Source: Blastocatellia bacterium
Lineage (GTDB): Bacteria; Acidobacteriota; Blastocatellia; HR10; J050
Assembly: GCA_026985075.1 (NCBI GenBank)
Contig: JALSQX010000053.1
Location: forward strand, 92,773 to 156,772
Direction of reading: 5' to 3'
DNA: 64,000 nucleotides
Part shown: piece after piece, positions 13,319-63,819 of the stretch
How the letters are laid out: each line of letters opens with the position of its first letter
Position numbering within the stretch: the first letter of the stretch is position 1
The notes under the pieces: model-generated
The model's input: only the letters and a program-made list of their open reading frames with translations
Database searches by the model: none
What the model was told of the DNA's origin: nothing
Made by a program: the position numbers and the translations under genes

Positions 13319-14401
13319 TCACTCCTCCATCAGGGGAGCAAGCCCACGTTCCACCTGATGGAGGATCCTCTCTGATCCCGTCTGCACTGGCTTCGGTTGG
13401 ACGGCGACATCCTTATAAAAGAAGTGCTTCCTGACGTGGCCGAACGGTTTTCCATCCACTTCCACATAGGGATAAATGAAGTAATTGAGAGGCTCACCTG
13501 CTTGAGGAGGATCTAAGATGATGTCCCGCCCAATGGTGAATTGCACGCGATTCTCATCGTGAGCGCCGAAAAAGTATTCTCTCTTTTCCGGATGCTTGTT
13601 CGCTTCGGAGGCATCCACGGGCACCCACCCATATCCTTTGAGGTAGAATTCGGCCCAACAGTGATAACCAGCAATCTCTCCCTGGCCCCGGTCGGGGGGT
13701 AATGGAAAGCCAATGGCGAACTTGGCCGGGATGCCCACCGCTCGGCAGAGTCCGATGAACAGAGCATGGAAATCGGTGCAGTTGCCGCGCTTCACGTCGC
13801 AGGCATAGTAGATATCGCCCCGTCCCCATCCGGTGCCACTTTTATCGTACGTGAGATTATCCACGACATAATCATAGATGGCGCGAACCTTCTCCAGATC
13901 GGCCGTCTTCCCCCGAGTGACGTCTCGGGCTAACGCCCTGATTCGATCATCGACGGGAACGAGTCGATCTGGCTGAAGCCATCGTTTCAAGAGAGGATCG
14001 GTGTCTCCCTCGACACGCACGCGCACCGATGAGAAATCCCGGCGGACATATTCTCGGCGCGTGACCAGGAACTTCATGTCTACGCGGATAGAATCCCGTC
14101 GAGGATTCGCTGCCGAGAGGAAGAGAATGGCATTGCCATACTCGGGATCACGATGCAGGCTCGTTGGATACGGCGCGGCGATGAGCAGGGGAGTGACCTC
14201 CTGGTGCGCATCGCTCGTCGGATAGGGTAACCAGATGGAAACCTTCTTGGCCTCTTTGGGAATATTGGTGACCTCGGCCGTGTAGGTGAATTCGAACGTG
14301 CGCACGGCCGGGCCGCGGGCCATGATGGTCACTCTCCCCGAACTGGCGAAGAGCCCCAATGCCCAAACAGAGACGATGAGCAGCAATCTCCCTTTCACCA
14401 T
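13319..14401 (-). CDS. Transglutaminase-like (Cys-His-Asp) domain protein, secreted
   Basis: Transglutaminase core YYACDVKRGNCTDFHALFIGLCRAVGIPAKFAIGF...GYHCWAEFYL...WVPVDAS. Signal peptide after ATG 14401, which is preceded by AGGAGG. Confidence 0.75.
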   Translation of the reverse strand: MVKGRLLLIVSVWALGLFASSGRVTIMARGPAVRTFEFTYTAEVTNIPKEAKKVSIWLPYPTSDAHQEVTPLLIAAPYPTSLHRDPEYGNAILFLSAANPRRDSIRVDMKFLVTRREYVRRDFSSVRVRVEGDTDPLLKRWLQPDRLVPVDDRIRALARDVTRGKTADLEKVRAIYDYVVDNLTYDKSGTGWGRGDIYYACDVKRGNCTDFHALFIGLCRAVGIPAKFAIGFPLPPDRGQGEIAGYHCWAEFYLKGYGWVPVDASEANKHPEKREYFFGAHDENRVQFTIGRDIILDPPQAGEPLNYFIYPYVEVDGKPFGHVRKHFFYKDVAVQPKPVQTGSERILHQVERGLAPLMEE

Positions 14402-14499
14402 TCTGCCTCCTTCAATCGAAGACGTCGGGCAGCAGGCTGCCGAGTCACCCCCGCCATTCCTGTTCTCCGTGACGGGCCCATGGGCGATCGATCGAGAGC

Positions 14500-15918
14500 T
14501 CAAAAATTGTACTGCACATAAATGTTCAGGCGATGATCCACGCCGCGATCAAGGCCTTTGTAATCGGTCGTCCAGTGAAGATAGTCGATACCCACGATGA
14601 ATGGGCCGCCGGGATAGAATCGATTGACGATGTACCATGCCCGATTCTTGATGCGACCCTGAACCGGGATGTCACGGTCCACGGGATCATCGACCGTGTA
14701 CCCCGGGAAAATCCAGTAGAATCGACTCAGCTTGATCCCCAATTCAGCCCAGCCCCCCCGACTTCTGATCTCCGTTCCCAGGACCGTATTCAGGCCCTGG
14801 CCCACGCCGCCCCGGAAGTCGCTCAGATTGCGCCCGAACCAACCTTCCCCTCGCAGCATCACGCGCTCGTGAAGAGCGAGGATGTAGTCGACATTGAGCG
14901 ACTGACTCCGAAAGCTCTTCCGACCGGCAACGGGCGTCACCATTTCCTCCCATCCATAGTGCCCGGAGACGCCCACGCTCAATCGACTGTTAGCATTCCA
15001 CAACGCATGGGCATAGCCAAGACGCGCCTGGAGATTCGGTTTGCGAGAGGTCTCTCCATCCCGAAAGCCGTCGCCGTCCAGGTCCTTACTATCAATGGCC
15101 CCCGTCAATCCGATCCCTCCGGCGAATGAGAATTGCCCACCACCGATATGGGGCTCGTAACTGAAACGAACCTGGGCTCGCCGATCGCCCAGATTCCCCG
15201 CATTCCACATCAACGTATCATTGTTCACCGTGGGATACAGGGGCGAAATGATGTCCCAGGTTTGCCCGCCGAGCAGGGAGAAGGCTCCCCAGGACACTTT
15301 CACATACGCATGCCGGGTCCGGAATCGCGGGCGCGATTCTCGTCCCCCATTCTGAAAATCGACTTCGAATTTTCCGGTGAGTCTTCCTCCACCGCCGATT
15401 TCTGGCCCCGAATAGTTGATGCCGATGCGCGTCAGCCGCGGATGCATGGTGAAGTTCCCCTTCCTGTTCCCCACGCCGAGACGTGGATCAGCCGAGCGCA
15501 CGCGAAAAATCGTCTGAGCGAAGTCAGGGCGTGCACTATCGGCGATCAGATCCAACCGCAGGAATCCGTAGAACTGGAGTCGGCTTCCCTTCGTGCTCAA
15601 CTCTTTCCACTTGACCGTCCCTCGGCCGGCGCCTTGAGGGGCACTCGTGAGCCCTCCCTTCCCTTGCCCACCGCGGTTCCCGCTCCTTTTCGTTTCACCA
15701 CCCAGCTCCCCTGCCTCTTGAACCGTTCTCGCGGCGAGTTGCTGCTTCAATGCCTGTAGCATCTGGAGGATGGCTCGATTCTGCGCTTCGAGTTCGCGAA
15801 CTCTCTGCCTCAGTGCTTCCAGCTCAGCGTCGCGCCGTTCACCTTGCGCTCGAACTCCCCAGGTCATTCCCAGTACCACTCCCACCAGACAAACAACGCG
15901 CATCCCAATCTTCAGCAT
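14500..15918 (-). CDS. Outer-membrane beta-barrel porin with an N-terminal periplasmic coiled coil (OprO/P- or DcaP-like architecture)
   Basis: Signal peptide, then a heptad-rich segment (ELEALRQRVRELEAQNRAILQMLQALKQQLAA). Alternating amphipathic beta-strands follow, with a C-terminal ...NIYVQYNF (terminal Phe). Start uncertain between 15903, 15918 and 15933. Confidence 0.6.
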   Translation of the reverse strand: MLKIGMRVVCLVGVVLGMTWGVRAQGERRDAELEALRQRVRELEAQNRAILQMLQALKQQLAARTVQEAGELGGETKRSGNRGGQGKGGLTSAPQGAGRGTVKWKELSTKGSRLQFYGFLRLDLIADSARPDFAQTIFRVRSADPRLGVGNRKGNFTMHPRLTRIGINYSGPEIGGGGRLTGKFEVDFQNGGRESRPRFRTRHAYVKVSWGAFSLLGGQTWDIISPLYPTVNNDTLMWNAGNLGDRRAQVRFSYEPHIGGGQFSFAGGIGLTGAIDSKDLDGDGFRDGETSRKPNLQARLGYAHALWNANSRLSVGVSGHYGWEEMVTPVAGRKSFRSQSLNVDYILALHERVMLRGEGWFGRNLSDFRGGVGQGLNTVLGTEIRSRGGWAELGIKLSRFYWIFPGYTVDDPVDRDIPVQGRIKNRAWYIVNRFYPGGPFIVGIDYLHWTTDYKGLDRGVDHRLNIYVQYNF

Positions 15919-16091
15919 CGTTGATATCCCCACACCGTTTTCGAATTACAAAGGAACCTTACCCTACCACGAATTTTTCTATAGGTCAAATTGGTATTTT
16001 CGATGGGTTACTGTCCGAGCCATTCAAAAAAGCAATACGCGGCGGCACACTGACCGAGGACGCCGGGATCGGCACCCCAATGAAGGCCGCT

Positions 16092-16991: not shown

Positions 16992-17234
16992 AAGGCTCAC
17001 GGCTATTCTACAGAATCCGAGGCGAGAGATGCAAAAAGCCACGACTCGTCATGGAGACGGTGAACGCCGAACGGGACCGAGGGACCTGGATTCTCGCTTC
17101 GCTGGATGGAATTCGAGCGATACGTCGGAGGGGCCAACCCTCTGGTCGATTTCGTGCATCCGATGCCTGTGGGGTCTGAAGAGACCGATGAGGAACTTCA
17201 CTCTTGGCAAAAGAGTGAGTACAATAGGAGGGTC

Positions 17235-18170
17235 ATGAATATGAAGCAACCGATACAGGGAAGTACGCTCAATCAGTCGGCGGAGAAGGCCGGGGCTCAG
17301 GTCCAACTGGCCAAACCCCGAGTGGGGTTCACCAGCACGCGGCTGTTCACGGTGGTCGCCGCTTTATTTGCCCTGCTGCTCGTCTATACGGTTTACCAGC
17401 TCTATCAGAGCAATGCTCACCTGGAAGAGAGCTTGAAGCAGGTTCAGACGCAGTTGGCCGTGATCAACCAGCGACTCGATGATGGTGACGCGCGTCTGGC
17501 CGAGTTGACGGCGCAGTTCCAGGTCACCACCGAACGTCTTGGCTTGACCAAGAGCGAACTCGAGCGGACCAAACAGATGGCCGCGCGGCTCAAGCGGGAA
17601 CAGCAAGAGCGAGTCAAGGAGTTGACCGAGGAACTGAAGCGGAAGGCCGAGGCCGAGCAGGTGGCGGCCTTACAGCGAGAGACGACGAGCAAGCTGAGCG
17701 CCCTCTCCGGCGACGTTTCGGCCACGCGCCAGCAAGTCGCCGTGGTCAACGAGAACGTCTCCAAAACGCGCGAGGAAGTGACCCAATTGAAGCTCAAGCT
17801 GAGCGAATACGGGACGCTCATCGCGCGGAATCGGAAGGAATTGGAATACCTCCGTCGGCGAGGCGAGCGCGATTACTTCGAGTTCGACATTCGCAAGGGC
17901 GCCTTCCATCAAGTCTCCGATCTTCGCCTCAAGCTGAGAAAGACGGACACCAAACGACAACGATGCGATATCGAGTACATCGCCGACGATCGGAGAGTGC
18001 GAAAAAAGAAAGTGAACGTCAATGAACCCATTCAGGTCTTCGTCAAGGGGCTGAAGACACCCTACGAGATCGTCATCAACCGCGTGGAGAAGAATCGCAT
18101 TATCGGGTATGTGAGCGCCCCCAAGGAGCGCGGCACAGCGCCTGGAAAGCCGATCAGCTCCGATCGCTGA
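17235..18170 (+). CDS. Hypothetical single-pass membrane protein with a long coiled coil and a small C-terminal domain
   Basis: ATG 17235 is preceded by AGGAGGG. TM segment LFTVVAALFALLLVYTVY, followed by about 200 aa rich in E/K/R/Q/L heptads. Divergent from the LysR gene. Confidence 0.55.
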   Translation: MNMKQPIQGSTLNQSAEKAGAQVQLAKPRVGFTSTRLFTVVAALFALLLVYTVYQLYQSNAHLEESLKQVQTQLAVINQRLDDGDARLAELTAQFQVTTERLGLTKSELERTKQMAARLKREQQERVKELTEELKRKAEAEQVAALQRETTSKLSALSGDVSATRQQVAVVNENVSKTREEVTQLKLKLSEYGTLIARNRKELEYLRRRGERDYFEFDIRKGAFHQVSDLRLKLRKTDTKRQRCDIEYIADDRRVRKKKVNVNEPIQVFVKGLKTPYEIVINRVEKNRIIGYVSAPKERGTAPGKPISSDR

Positions 18171-22112: not shown

Positions 22113-22141
22113 TTGAAAAAACGAGATGCAGTCTTTACAAT
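22113..22141 (+). promoter_or_regulatory. Candidate sigma70-type promoter TTGAAA-N17-TACAAT for the OPT transporter gene
   Basis: Lies in the divergent clpX/OPT intergenic region, about 78 nt upstream of ATG 22219. Confidence 0.4.
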
Positions 22142-22218: not shown

Positions 22219-24183
22219 ATGAGCGACACAGAGTTCAAACCCTATGTCCCTCCTGACACGGATCTACAGGAATTCACCTTCAAGGCGCTTCTGGTGGGCG
22301 TCGTCCTGGCCTGCATCTTAGGGGCGGCCAACGCCTATCTGGGTATGAAAGCGGGGCTCACCGTGGCGGCGACGTTCCCGGCTGCCGTCGTCGCTATGGC
22401 TATCCTGCGACCGTTTCGCGGGACAGTGCTGGAAGAGAATATCGCCCGGACGACCGCCTCCGTCGGCGAAGCGTTGGTTGCGGGGGCGATCTTCACCATT
22501 CCCGCGTTCGTCATCTCGGGCGTGTGGGACGAGCTGAAATATTTCGAGAGCACGGCCATCATGCTCATTGGGGGCGTCCTGGGGGTGTTATTCGTGGTCA
22601 TGTTGCGTCGCACGCTGGTGGAAGAGGCGGAGCTGCCGTTTCCCGAGAGCGTGGCCTGCGCTGAAATCGTCAAAGCTGGACAAGGCGGCCAGACGGGCGC
22701 CCAGTATGTGTTCGGCGCCTTCGGCCTGGCCGCGGTCTGGGAACTGTTCAAAAACGCCAACGGATTCCAAGCGATGACCGAGCACATCGGTCGCTTCTTC
22801 GCCTTCGCCCGATCGGAGATCAATCTGGGCATCGCCACCCAATCGCAAGCCACCTCCTACGGGGGAGGTATCTTCCTGGAGTCGCCCTCGGCCAGTCCAG
22901 CCCTCATGGGCGTGGGATACATCATTGGAGCGCGACTGGCGGCCATCGTCTTTGCTGGCGGTTGCATGGGATGGCTGGTGCTCGTTCCCCTCGCTCTGTT
23001 CCTCAATCCCGGCCTGGAGACTATGGTCAATGGAGATGTCGATTGGGTCACTCTGAGCGGAGCCGTCTGGCGAACGCAAGTTCGCCCCCTGGCCGTCGGG
23101 GCGATGATCGTGGCGGCATTCTATACGCTCTACAATCTGCGCGCCTCGCTCATCGAAGGCATTGGGAAAGCCATTCGCGACATGAGAATGGCCAAGGAGG
23201 CTGCCGTCAACACCAATCGACTGGAGCGAGATATCCCCTTCAAAGGTGTGGTGGGAGCAATCCTGGTCATGATCATTCCCCTCACCATCCTCTACTATTA
23301 TTTCAGCCGGAGCATCGAAGGGTCGGTCATTTCAGCGATCATCATGGCCATTGCCGGTTTTCTGTTCGCCGCCGTGGCCGGTTATCTGGTTGGCCTGATC
23401 GGCAGTTCCAACAATCCCATCTCGGGACTCACGCTCTCGACGCTCATCATCGCCGCCCTGCTCATGGTCACCATTGGGCTGACGGGCAATCCGGGCATCG
23501 CCGCTGTGCTCGGTGTCGCCGGCGTGGTGTGTTGTTCGGCGGGCATTGCCGGCGATATGATGCAAGACCTGAAGGTAGGACACATCCTGGGAGGGACGCC
23601 GGCGAAAATGGAGTGGGGAGAAATCATCGGCGTCATCGTGGCGGCGTTCGTGCTCGTCTACCCTCTCTGGGTGCTCGACAAAACGATCGGGATCGGTGGC
23701 GCCGAGTTGCCCGCTCCGCAGGCCGGACTCATGGCGCTCATGGCCAAGGGCATCGTGGGGGGGAAGATGCCCTGGGCGCTGGTGATCATTGGCATGCTCT
23801 TTGCCTTGTTCCTGATCCTGGTCAAAGCTCCGGCCCCCATGCTCATCGCCGTAGGCATGTATTTACCCTTCCACTCCACAGCGGCCATCTTCGCCGGTGG
23901 CGTGATCCGGTGGATTTTCGATGTGATTCTCAGAGCGAGGAAGGTCCCCGATGCCGAACGCGACGCCAAGGTGAATGTGGGCATCCTTCTCTCGTCAGGA
24001 TTAATCGCCGGCGAAGCGCTGACGGCGGTGATTCTGGCTTTCCTCGTGCTCTTCGAGGTGAAGCTCCCCACGATCAGCCAGAATCCGTATGTCGCCTTTC
24101 TCATCTATCCCATTATGCTCATGGTGCTGGTGTGGATTCCTCTGAGGAGTAAAGGAGCTGCCGCCGTCCACATTTCACATTGA
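22219..24183 (+). CDS. OPT-family oligopeptide transporter
   Basis: 654-aa polytopic protein. N-terminus FKALLVGVVLACILGAANAYLGMKAGLTVAATFPAAVVAMAIL is typical of OPT-superfamily transporters. Confidence 0.85.
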   Translation: MSDTEFKPYVPPDTDLQEFTFKALLVGVVLACILGAANAYLGMKAGLTVAATFPAAVVAMAILRPFRGTVLEENIARTTASVGEALVAGAIFTIPAFVISGVWDELKYFESTAIMLIGGVLGVLFVVMLRRTLVEEAELPFPESVACAEIVKAGQGGQTGAQYVFGAFGLAAVWELFKNANGFQAMTEHIGRFFAFARSEINLGIATQSQATSYGGGIFLESPSASPALMGVGYIIGARLAAIVFAGGCMGWLVLVPLALFLNPGLETMVNGDVDWVTLSGAVWRTQVRPLAVGAMIVAAFYTLYNLRASLIEGIGKAIRDMRMAKEAAVNTNRLERDIPFKGVVGAILVMIIPLTILYYYFSRSIEGSVISAIIMAIAGFLFAAVAGYLVGLIGSSNNPISGLTLSTLIIAALLMVTIGLTGNPGIAAVLGVAGVVCCSAGIAGDMMQDLKVGHILGGTPAKMEWGEIIGVIVAAFVLVYPLWVLDKTIGIGGAELPAPQAGLMALMAKGIVGGKMPWALVIIGMLFALFLILVKAPAPMLIAVGMYLPFHSTAAIFAGGVIRWIFDVILRARKVPDAERDAKVNVGILLSSGLIAGEALTAVILAFLVLFEVKLPTISQNPYVAFLIYPIMLMVLVWIPLRSKGAAAVHISH

Positions 24184-24238
24184 GGGCGATGTCATCCCCA
24201 TCCGCCAGAGAGAGTGGCTCCGGCGGGCCGATGGACGT

Positions 24239-24535
24239 GTGATCATTCTCGTTCCCAAATGGGGACCGGGGCGGATAGGGCGCTGGCTGATGGCCCGAAT
24301 GAAAAACCCGAATTATCGGGTGAATCTAGATGAGATCGGGACCTGGATCTGGCTCCGATGCGACGGCCAACACACCGTCGAGCAACTGGCCAAAGGATTG
24401 AAAGACGAATTCGGCGATCGGGTGGAGCCCGTCCATGAGCGGTTGACTCTTTTTCTCCGACAACTGGTTCGGGGCCGATTCATCGTCCTCCGTAAGGCCA
24501 CATCGCCAACCGAGCGTTCCCCCTCAAAAGCGTGA
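24239..24535 (+). CDS. PqqD-family protein (RiPP recognition element-like peptide chaperone)
   Basis: YRVNLDEIGTWIWLRCDGQHTVEQLAKGLKDEFGDRVEPVHERLTLFLRQLVRGRFIV matches the PqqD-family pattern LNetGa.iW..lDG.rtveeI...L.eeY.v...e...Dv..Fl..L...GLi. Lies 55 nt after the OPT stop on the same strand. Confidence 0.55.
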   Translation: MIILVPKWGPGRIGRWLMARMKNPNYRVNLDEIGTWIWLRCDGQHTVEQLAKGLKDEFGDRVEPVHERLTLFLRQLVRGRFIVLRKATSPTERSPSKA

Positions 24536-24945
24536 CGCGCTCGAGTGCGGGGAGAAGAGAATCAGGCTCGCTGGAGTCCGCACCCGAGCGCTCCCGGCTC
24601 CGCTATTGCCGAACGCTCACCCCCCGATGAACGTGCTGGAGCTGCGGCGGCCGTTCTCCTGAGCTGAGAGACCTATACCGGCTCCGAGAGGTCGTCTCTT
24701 CAGGGCTCAGGGGAGTGGCGGGGTGGTTTCCTGGGGCGCGTGCTCCAGGCCCCTCAGGGTGTTTCTTCGGAGGCGGAACGCTCCATCGCTACTCTCGCCC
24801 TCCCGATGGGCGCGCGCTGGTTCCTTTACCTCTGAGACTCCAACCATCTGGCTGGTGCATCTCCGCGGTTGACACGGTGGAAACCTCTGAGAGGGTGTGT
24901 TAAGATAAGTCTATTTCTAAAAAGAACGAGCCTGAGAGCGGAACC

Positions 24946-30989: not shown

Positions 30990-31997
30990 ATGCCAACGAT
31001 GAAAGCCATTCGCGTGGATGAATGGGGTGGACCGGAGGTCCTCCAGATGACCGACGTCCCCCAACCGAGCCCGGGTCCCGGTGAAGTCCTCATCCAGGTG
31101 GCGGCAGCCAGCGTCAATTACGCCGACACGATGCAGCGACGAGGCACCTACCCCGGTGGACCGGAACCGCCGTTCATTCCCGGTCTGGAAGTCGCCGGCC
31201 ACATCGTCGCCCGGGGCGATGGTGTCCATGACGTCGAAGAGGGTCAACCGGTCATGACGTTCACCGGAGGGCGCGGGTACGCGGAATTCGTCGTCGTTCC
31301 CGCTCACCTGGTCATGCCCTTGCCCGAAGGCTACCGTCTGGAAGAGGCGGCGGCCTTCCCTATCGTGTTCCTGACGGCTTATTTCGCCCTGAAGTCATTC
31401 GGTCGACTCACCGCCGGAGAATCGGTCTTGATTCATGCCGCTGCCGGTGGCGTCGGGACGGCCGCCGTTCAACTGGCCAAGCAGATGGGCGCCCGCGTCT
31501 TCGCCACGGCGAGCTCTGAGGAAAAACTCCAACGCGTTCGAGAGCTGGGCGCCGATGAACTCATCAACTATAAAGAGCAAGATTTCGCCGAGATCGTCCG
31601 CCGCATCACCGGTGGGCGGGGTGTTGATTTGATCCTGGAGATGGTCGGTGGCGAGGTGTTCCAGAAAAGTCTGGACGCTCTGGCGCCATTTGGCCGACTC
31701 GTGACCTATGGTATCGCCGGCGGCCGGCCAGCTCCGGTGACCAACCGACAACTCATCCTCAATAACCTCACTGTGGCTGGCGTCAATCTCAATTTGATCG
31801 CTCGCACGCCTCGACTGGCTACGACCATGCGGGAGCTGCTGGAGTTCATTCGAGGGACTCGGATTCGTCCCATTATCGGTCACACCTTTGAACTCGGCCA
31901 GGCCGCCGAAGCTCATCGCCTCCTGGAGAGCCGAGAGAGCTTCGGTAAGATCATCTTGAAACCCGGTCCTCCGGCATCGGCGACCACTCGTCAGTGA
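30990..31997 (+). CDS. NADPH:quinone oxidoreductase / zinc-type alcohol dehydrogenase-like (MDR superfamily)
   Basis: MKAIRVDEWGGPEVLQMTDVPQP...IHAAAGGVGTAAVQLAK cofactor-binding motif. Confidence 0.85.
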   Translation: MPTMKAIRVDEWGGPEVLQMTDVPQPSPGPGEVLIQVAAASVNYADTMQRRGTYPGGPEPPFIPGLEVAGHIVARGDGVHDVEEGQPVMTFTGGRGYAEFVVVPAHLVMPLPEGYRLEEAAAFPIVFLTAYFALKSFGRLTAGESVLIHAAAGGVGTAAVQLAKQMGARVFATASSEEKLQRVRELGADELINYKEQDFAEIVRRITGGRGVDLILEMVGGEVFQKSLDALAPFGRLVTYGIAGGRPAPVTNRQLILNNLTVAGVNLNLIARTPRLATTMRELLEFIRGTRIRPIIGHTFELGQAAEAHRLLESRESFGKIILKPGPPASATTRQ

Positions 31998-62634: not shown

Positions 62635-63819
62635 TCACGAAAATGCTTCTACGATCATCGCAATTCCCTGACCGCCCCCAATGCAGGCAGTGGCCAGCCC
62701 ATACGTCTTGCGCCGCCGCCGCAATTCCAGCAGCAGTGTGAGCACCAATCGCGTGCCGGTCGCACCCAATGGATGACCGAGGGCTATGGCTCCTCCATTG
62801 ACATTGGTTCGCTGGCGATCGAGGCCCAATTCTCTCTCCACGGCCAGGTACTGGGCCGCAAACGCCTCGTTGACCTCGATGAGATCCATATCATCGAGGG
62901 TGAGACCGGCTCGCTTCAGCGCCAGGCGCGTGGCCGGCACCGGCCCGATCCCCATGATCTCCGGTTCGACGGCCGCGACGCCCCAAGAGACGATGCGGCC
63001 GAGCGGTTGGGCCCCGCGCCTCTCGGCCACTTTCTCGTGAGCGATGACCAGAGCGGCGCCTCCATCGACGATCCCGGAGGCATTGCCCGCCGTGACCGTC
63101 CCATCTTCGGAGAAGGCGGGCTTCAACCTGGCCAGCGCCTCCAACGTCGTATCAGGCCGCATGTGATCGTCCTCATCGAAAAGCTCCTTCCCCTTCTTCG
63201 TCGTGATTTCCACCGGCACGATCTCTTCGGCGAATCGGCCGGCAACACGAGCGGCGGCAGCCCGCTGCTGGCTGAGCAGAGCGAATTGGTCCTGCTCCTC
63301 GCGACTGATCTCATATCGCCGCGCCAGATTCTCTGCCGTTTGTGCCATATAATAGCCGCAATATTCGTCCTTCAACGCTGCCAGGAGCGCATCTTCCAGG
63401 GGAGCGTTCCCCAATCGCCATCCCCACCGCACGCCGCGAATGACGTGCGGCGCTTGAGACATCGATTCCATCCCTCCAGCGAGCACGACTTCGGCCTCGC
63501 CGAGCATGATCATGTGAGCGCCACTGATGATGGATTGTATGCCCGAGCCACATAATCGATTCACGACGAGCGCCGGTCGGTCGACGGGGATGCCAGCTTG
63601 AAGGCCAACATGACGGGCACTATAGATGGCGTTGCTTGATGCTTGAATGACATTACCCATGACTACGTGGTCGATGTCTTCCGGCGCGACTCCGGCGCGC
63701 TCCATGGCCGCGCGGGCGGCGATGGTACCCAGTTCGATCTCAGTGAACTCGCGAAGCTTGCCGGCATACTCTCCCATCGGCGTTCGCGCTCCGCCCAAGA
63801 AGACGATTCCTGGTGTCAT
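62635..63819 (-). CDS. Acetyl-CoA C-acetyltransferase (thiolase II)
   Basis: Cys-acyl site [11 protein letters not shown]-terminal His/Cys motifs ([17 protein letters not shown]; CIGGGQG). Confidence 0.9.

Follow-up and report, generated by a model that had tools for sequence, protein, structure and literature searches.

A PqqD-like protein encoded in a conserved two-gene module with an OPT-family oligopeptide transporter

Results

The gene pair and the start of its second gene

The locus described here lies in a stretch of 64,000 nucleotides (nt) from the metagenome-assembled genome of a Blastocatellia bacterium (Acidobacteriota; GenBank assembly GCA_026985075.1, contig JALSQX010000053.1, positions 92,773 to 156,772 of the forward strand), which is referred to as the window and whose own position numbers are used throughout. 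On the + strand it contains a gene for an oligopeptide transporter of the OPT family (22219-24183), followed by a small gene for a protein resembling PqqD, a protein with the fold of the recognition elements (RREs) of peptides that are ribosomally synthesized and modified post-translationally (RiPPs). The first gene of the pair is full-length and encodes 654 amino acids (aa); its identity is based on matches to PF03169 (E 8e-92) and to TIGR00733, for which 392 bits were obtained compared to a cutoff of 182.5. Together, the two genes form a bicistronic module whose conservation extends over many phyla of bacteria and to some archaea.

The second gene had been flagged in an earlier note on this DNA as an open reading frame (ORF) of 98 aa situated 55 nt downstream of the transporter gene. 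This mechanically derived ORF is present with the quoted sequence at 24239-24535 (+), running over 98 codons from a GTG start to a TGA stop codon, and the distance is arithmetically correct for the GTG at 24239. The start itself, however, had been placed too far downstream, as can be seen from the homologues, from the synonymous sites and from a GCG codon in a related genome. The flagged ORF comprises the C-terminal four fifths of the gene.

An exhaustive phmmer search, for which the reading frame was translated from the OPT stop codon to the end of the gene (24182-24535), yielded 1027 cluster representatives at E<=1e-3, of which 285 reached E<=1e-10. The homologues mostly have a length of 110-135 aa, and the alignment begins at query residues 3-6, i.e. 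upstream of the GTG at 24239. In this region, the window segment IPIRQREWLRRADGRV-IILVPKW aligns with the N-terminal motif of the family (L.P.R...WE..dG.V.lLvPKF). For a close comparison, three genomes of about 97% identity were used, namely the window and two relatives (L088, GCA_003696865.1, and L089). Four sites vary between the OPT stop codon and 24239, each of them synonymously in the PqqD-like frame, and a fifth variable site at 24157 is synonymous in the PqqD-like frame and non-synonymous in the OPT frame. The rest of the PqqD-like gene showed 17 synonymous and 2-4 non-synonymous changes. Since the variation upstream of 24239 is exclusively synonymous and L089 carries GCG where the window has the GTG, this stretch is translated and 24239 is not the conserved start. 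The PqqD-like gene almost certainly begins upstream of 24239 and overlaps the end of the OPT gene.

The best start candidate is the CTG at 24158, the exact codon being inferred. It would result in a full-length gene at 24158..24535 (+) with 125 codons plus stop, whose first 26 nt overlap with OPT in the +1 frame and whose product would comprise 125 aa with an isoelectric point (pI) of 10.8. A Shine-Dalgarno-like GAGGAG element is located at 24144..24149 (+) within the 3' end of the OPT gene, 8 nt before this CTG, and is retained in L088 and L089. The same motif precedes many genes of the window, among them the OPT gene (6-nt spacer) and the genes at 30990 and 51501 (8-nt spacers), and the context of the CTG is in this respect a typical one; neither the GTG at 24239 nor the ATG at 24290 is preceded by a GAGGAG-type motif. 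An alternative non-canonical start would be the ATT at 24179, which overlaps the TGA of the OPT gene as ATTGA. One other locus of the family (L030) also comprises no canonical start upstream of the aligned region. The public annotations give a protein of 81 aa (from the ATG at 24290) or of 98 aa (from the GTG at 24239, RMG50828.1), and both are N-terminally truncated. The locus exposes an annotation error of the public records, with a start that is almost certainly a non-canonical codon inside the OPT gene.

Family membership and predicted structure

The PqqD pattern recognized in the earlier note was borne out by the hidden Markov model PF05402, which matched with 41.5 bits (E 1.7e-10) at a gathering score of 23.4, and a precomputed match to the same model was found on nearly all of 120 listed family members. 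The scores for the NCBIfam models all remained below the respective cutoffs, with 29.2 compared to 100 for ScmD, 28.7 compared to 46 for PqqD (TIGR03859) and 21.9 compared to 80 for the lasso peptide B1 protein (NF033536). TIGR03859 was matched by 118 of 121 family members with a best E-value of 1.4e-10, these being E-values and not cutoff scores. No model specific for the OPT-associated PqqD-like family is present in NCBIfam.

The signature of the family consists of an N-terminal L.P.R...WE strand, PKF, a basic inserted helix, LD..GS.VW..CDG and ERL..F...L. The window translation from 24158 aligns to this signature over its full length, including the invariant residues D58, G61, W65 and R95. 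The most conserved positions of the family are the core RRE signature residues, i.e. LD..G..W..CDG and, on helix alpha3, R95, F99 and L103, which make up the conserved face of this helix.

An AlphaFold2 (AF2) model of the 125-aa version, calculated with 121 aligned homologues, reached a pLDDT of 83.9 and a pTM of 0.72. The predicted layout is beta-beta-beta-(inserted helix)-beta-alpha-alpha-alpha-beta, with strands at residues 12-16, 20-22 and 28-33, a helix at 39-47, a strand at 52-56, helices at 59-66, 74-89 and 92-105 and a last strand at 109-113. In this model strand beta1 (residues 12-16) is encoded upstream of 24239, so that a start at 24239 would lose beta1 and a start at 24290 both beta1 and beta2. 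Foldseek comparisons with lasso B1 proteins gave target-normalised TM scores of 0.72-0.75 at weak E-values (>0.01), and a profile search against the sequences of the PDB found PqqD-family chains at E about 1e-3. Relative to canonical PqqD, the predicted helix 39-47 represents an insertion. The conserved basic residues K34, K/R42, R47, K49 and K/R54 are family-specific and were assigned to this inserted helix, and the family is basic overall with a median pI of 9.4. Altogether, the predicted structure shows a complete RRE fold for a small, basic and presumably cytoplasmic protein.

Both by profile and by fold the protein belongs to the PqqD/RRE superfamily, the predicted fold being a winged helix with three helices and a three-stranded sheet that can be superposed on solved RREs. 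An assignment to PqqD proper was not obtained, as the score lies below the cutoff and no pqqA, pqqB, pqqC or pqqE gene is found in the neighbourhood. The same holds true for lasso B1 proteins, where the score is likewise below the cutoff and no asparagine-synthase-like cyclase or B2 protease adjoins, and for the RREs of RiPP clusters, where a modifying enzyme is absent from the window and the ORFs of the following spacer are not conserved. The protein could also not be assigned to the winged-helix transcription regulators, as neither a helix-turn-helix regulator family was matched nor were its nearest structural neighbours DNA-binding proteins. It does show both features of the proposed OPT-associated PqqD-like family, namely the signature and a co-oriented gene immediately downstream of an OPT gene. 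Compared to TbiB1, TfuB1 and PqqD, the window protein has neither a partner enzyme (B2 protease, cyclase or PqqE) nor a precursor gene, and its gene is coupled to that of a transporter. The family furthermore has a basic helix of its own, inserted between beta2 and beta3 and about 15 residues long, as well as the conserved N-terminal strand motif (L.P.R...WE).

Conservation of the pair

The genomic context of the PqqD-like gene was determined in two samples. A sample with one genome per GTDB species, searched with a 7-sequence alignment, resulted in 80 loci, and exact-protein look-ups of four homologues resulted in five distinct loci from Aminicenantes-like bacteria, KSB1 and Acidobacteriota. 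All five look-up loci have a co-oriented OPT gene immediately upstream, in otherwise variable gene surroundings. The combined set comprises 84 non-redundant loci, of which 78 are informative, the remaining six being cut off by a contig end. An OPT gene is adjacent (<=600 nt, same strand) in 56 loci and separated from the PqqD-like gene by one gene of the major facilitator superfamily (MFS) in five; it lies farther away in one locus and is missing in 16. Accordingly, OPT is found just upstream on the same strand in 61 of the 78 informative loci, which originate from at least 10 phyla including archaea.

The bacterial hosts of PqqD-like loci comprise Acidobacteriota, Aminicenantes, KSB1, Calditrichota, Ignavibacteria, Myxococcales, Gemmatimonadota, Bacteroidota and many Clostridia, and the archaeal hosts belong to the Thermoplasmata. 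Among the Clostridia are Oscillospiraceae, Ruminococcus, Lachnospiraceae, Roseburia and the cultured Defluviitalea phaphyphila.

Among 77 adjacent pairs, 20 have a predicted PqqD-like start that overlaps the OPT stop codon, and in a further 23 it lies 0-10 nt past this codon (43/77); the 26-nt overlap in the window is within the range of these pairs. Given such close spacing of stop and start, the transporter and the PqqD-like protein are probably made together by translational coupling.

Variations of the arrangement were observed in several lineages. Five loci of Ignavibacteria/Melioribacteraceae show the order OPT, MFS (about 425 aa), PqqD-like, a protein of about 250 aa and an M29-like aminopeptidase. 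In three loci, one of them L030, the PqqD-like gene is located directly 3' of an MFS gene. In another locus two divergent OPT genes stand side by side, and a PqqD-like gene follows only the one on the + strand. Six metagenome-assembled genomes of Armatimonadota contain more distant PqqD-like members that are not beside OPT. In these six loci an FtsX-like permease and an ABC ATPase are encoded 3' of the PqqD-like gene, and conserved proteins of about 340-690 aa without Pfam match on its 5' side; this arrangement could represent another kind of transporter module or a peptide pathway not yet described.

The transporter side of the pair

A metagenome scan with an OPT alignment led to 80 OPT loci, 72 of them informative, and a PqqD-like gene lies downstream of OPT in 23 of these. 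The partner is present in 16 of the 19 best matches to the window OPT compared to 7 of the 53 remaining OPT loci. A distance tree of 129 OPTs places partnered and unpartnered transporters in separate blocks, and the labels of nearest neighbours agree in 117 of 122 cases. This indicates that the partner is a stable trait of certain OPT clades and not of all OPTs. Across many phyla, the two genes of the module are passed on together within a distinct clade of prokaryotic OPTs.

In the sampled loci, no alternative small partner was found downstream of unpartnered OPTs. The genes recurring there, as recognized by eye, encode a YggS-like protein, a peptide deformylase, a spermidine-synthase-like membrane protein and an M20 peptidase. 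The window OPT (22219-24183) carries the conserved cytoplasmic N-terminal motif EFKPYVP within the tail MSDTEFKPYVPPDTDLQEF. Directly ahead of the first transmembrane helix, prokaryotic OPTs from bacteria and archaea share a strongly conserved motif, (D/E)FKPY(V/I)P...E(F/L)T, which corresponds to 22219-22280 of the window. A sequence search of the PDB gave no solved structure matching the window OPT.

OPT transporters are proton-coupled importers, and in 2011 the prokaryotic members were reported as biochemically uncharacterised (PMC3061005). Import of peptides by prokaryotic OPTs has already been suggested from genome context, i.e. from peptidase genes nearby; a PqqD-like or small neighbouring protein is not mentioned in that study (PMC3061005). 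The upstream gene of the window is a full-length member of the prokaryotic branch of this family (TCDB 2.A.67), and peptidase genes as in the published study are in several lineages of the present samples also found 3' of the pair.

Neighbouring genes, spacer and transcription signals

The genes around the OPT-PqqD-like module vary, and the recurrent ones are peptidases rather than RiPP enzymes. Of 11 loci with an M20 peptidase, 7 have it in the first position after the pair, and of 13 loci with an M29-like peptidase, 10 have it in the second. The gene for a peptide deformylase lies just 3' of the pair or of OPT in three loci of Aminicenantes/Acidobacteriota, together with fmt, and was recognized by eye at six loci with unpartnered OPTs as well.

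A Pfam scan of 59 of the 61 larger ORFs in the window (all except 62635-63819 and 17106-18170, the latter without Pfam match on record) revealed no radical SAM, YcaO, lasso cyclase, B2 or PQQ (pyrroloquinoline quinone) genes, in agreement with the earlier note, which had listed radical-SAM, YcaO, lasso cyclase and PQQ genes as absent nearby. In the annotated loci, no pqqABCE genes adjoin any of the homologues, as far as the neighbourhoods and not the whole genomes are concerned, and no RiPP enzyme is found among the genes that recur next to the homologues in about 85 loci. A screen for CxxxCxxC near the homologues led to five ORFs, three of which have Pfam matches, to MiaB/RimO-type methylthiotransferases and Tyw1. 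On the basis of these matches the radical-SAM neighbours are housekeeping enzymes and not RiPP maturases. The only transglutaminase-core protein of the window (394 aa, 13319-14503, -) lies about 10 kb away and is preceded by a 477-aa protein without Pfam match in the same region (13319-15933, -). It was considered as a lasso B2 protease and rejected as too large and too distant; it appears to be unrelated.

The spacer between the PqqD-like gene and the following gene for a ClC/CBS channel (24536..24945) has neither a small ORF that is conserved nor a match to an Rfam family. It comprises 410 nt in the window compared to 168 nt in close relatives, since about 240 nt at about 24545-24790 are absent from two genomes of about 97% identity. 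For this segment, neither a second copy in the window nor an Rfam match was found, and its folding is not significant. Rfam gave 0 matches over the whole window, and the folding z-score of the spacer showed nothing unusual. The earlier note had proposed that small ORFs of the spacer be checked as precursor candidates. In the corresponding check, the ORFs of >=20 aa in 24536-24945 were unremarkable and none is conserved in the two genomes of about 97% identity, so that with a spacer that varies by insertion or deletion the precursor candidates were discarded. The two further terms of the note were not supported either: the gene, which had been called an orphan, belongs to a pair that is a conserved module in most homologous loci, and a dispersed RiPP cluster finds no counterpart in its surroundings, where across phyla only the transporter and sometimes peptidases are conserved.

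Only the last ~70 nt of the spacer, about 24880-24945, are conserved (GGTGGAAACC...GTTAAGATA.GT.TATTTCT). This block is probably the promoter or 5' untranslated region of the ClC/CBS gene itself, which would make the OPT-PqqD-like pair a separate transcription unit. Upstream of OPT, a sigma-70-like promoter candidate, TTGAAA-17-TACAAT, is located at 22113..22141 (+); it is a consensus match only and weak on its own, with 1 site compared to 0.9 expected in shuffled sequences. No promoter-like site was found between the OPT gene and the PqqD-like gene. A GC-rich hairpin across the stop codon (24534..24593, +) is a possible end of the transcription unit, although with -29.6 kcal/mol and a z-score of -1.08 it is no more stable than shuffled sequence. 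A terminator with a T-tract was not found for the pair.

Discussion

Proposed function of the PqqD-like protein

Based on the pairing, the signature and the predicted fold, we lean towards the interpretation that the PqqD-like protein is a cytoplasmic peptide-binding accessory subunit of an OPT clade. As in RREs, a short extended peptide would be bound by strand addition to beta3 and would pack on helix alpha3, with the binding serving transport rather than modification of the peptide. Its place would most likely be on the cytoplasmic side of the transporter, where the amphipathic basic helix specific to the family would keep it; a role of this helix as anchor to the membrane or to the transporter is plausible. 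Two modes of action are conceivable. The protein may receive incoming oligopeptides and hand them over to peptidases, which fits with the peptidase genes 3' of the pair in several lineages. Alternatively, it may bind a peptide segment of the transporter itself, for example the N-terminal EFKPYVP tail, and thereby control its activity.

Several observations weigh against this interpretation. About a fifth of the family members have no OPT gene next to them and occur beside genes of MFS, FtsX/ABC or other types, which means that the tie of the family to OPT is not a strict one. With the thresholds used, no column or indel of the OPT alignment cleanly divides partnered from unpartnered transporters. 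Since the (D/E)FKPY(V/I)P tail motif is found in both groups alike, it provides no partner-specific docking signature. The high pI would suit binding of nucleic acids equally well. In the window, no ATG, GTG or TTG occurs between the in-frame stop codon at 24143-24145 and 24239, so that a canonical start is missing. Finally, no ORF fusing OPT and PqqD-like protein was found in about 165 loci, and a fusion by programmed +1 frameshifting is for this reason unlikely as well.

More generally, there may exist a widespread class of RRE-fold proteins outside of RiPP biosynthesis, spread over Clostridia, Acidobacteriota and Thermoplasmata, that act as dedicated cytoplasmic subunits for peptide binding or gating in secondary peptide transporters, mainly of OPT and sometimes of MFS or FtsX/ABC type; this broader proposal is put forward tentatively.

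Alternative explanations

The basic character of the family would also suit an autoregulator, i.e. a winged-helix or peptide-responsive DNA-binding protein that is co-transcribed with the transporter and controls the operon depending on imported peptides. This explanation is regarded as unlikely. No Pfam helix-turn-helix family was matched, and the conserved basic residues are located in the inserted helix and not in alpha3, which would have to be the recognition helix. Moreover, the overlap of stop and start codons with the gene of a membrane transporter suggests coupled production, which would be unusual for a regulator.

Coupled production also speaks for a structural or assembly partner that stabilises, assembles or inserts OPT or other transporters without binding free peptides, with an RRE groove that is vestigial or is filled by a transporter segment during biogenesis only. 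The association with three unrelated transporter types (OPT, MFS and FtsX/ABC) and an amphipathic basic helix that suits a membrane surface are in line with such a role. However, the RRE signature residues are the most conserved ones of the family, which argues for a binding surface in use, and the protein is missing at two thirds of the related OPTs sampled. A purely structural role is considered rather improbable.

A dispersed RiPP pathway, in which the protein serves as leader-peptide chaperone for enzymes and a precursor encoded elsewhere and OPT exports or imports the product, could be expected from the fact that the characterised discrete PqqD-like proteins, as far as is known, all serve RiPP or PQQ biosynthesis, and from the weak similarity seen in the sub-threshold scores for the models of ScmD, PqqD and lasso B1. 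It is nonetheless very unlikely, since neither the 64 kb of the window nor the recurrent neighbours contain a RiPP enzyme, no conserved small ORF adjoins a gene whose spacer varies even among near-identical genomes, the transporter is the only gene conserved alongside across bacteria and archaea, and OPTs are proton-coupled importers (PMC3061005).

That the gene is decaying in this genome, its canonical start being lost and a pseudogene or a truncated product of 81-98 aa remaining, would explain the missing start codon and the versions of 81 or 98 aa picked by gene callers, but is highly improbable in view of the purifying selection upstream in the PqqD-like frame (5/5 variable sites synonymous), a frame that is intact in three diverged genomes, the typical GAGGAG context of the CTG at 24158 and the predicted loss of one or two strands in the truncated products.

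Comparison with known systems and significance

Peptide binders that work together with import are known from other systems. The RNPP receptors (Rgg, PlcR, PrgX) act after import and the OppA-type proteins before it, and both can be regarded as analogues in function only. Their folds (TPR and periplasmic binding protein, respectively) are unrelated, and the RNPP receptors are transcription factors that are not known to be translationally coupled to the transporter. With respect to gene organization, YbdD, which follows CstA in E. coli, is comparable: a small cytoplasmic protein abutting a secondary transporter (for peptides or pyruvate) and thought to be needed for its function. YbdD and CstA differ from the pair of the window in that YbdD belongs to DUF466 and has no RRE fold and CstA belongs to another transporter family.

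In the literature searched, no paper linking PqqD or RREs to OPT transporters was found. The RRE-Finder papers contain unexplained discrete RRE hits outside of lasso clusters and do not mention an association with OPT. The pair would represent a known fold in a new, transporter-linked role, and its two-gene unit has, as far as we could find, never been described.

We know of no accessory subunit for OPT transporters. If the proposed function is correct, the PqqD-like protein would be the first one for this family, and a peptide-recognition module of natural-product biosynthesis would be used in, or would have been borrowed from, ordinary peptide transport.

RRE and PqqD-like domains are used as class-independent markers in genome mining for RiPPs. 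A large family tied to transporters, with its 1027 representatives, leads systematically to 'orphan RRE' calls and suggests a role of this fold beyond natural products. Furthermore, a conserved and probably stoichiometric partner would provide a handle on the prokaryotic OPTs, by co-expression, structure determination and uptake assays, for which cultured or culturable hosts such as Defluviitalea, Ruminococcus and Roseburia are at hand.
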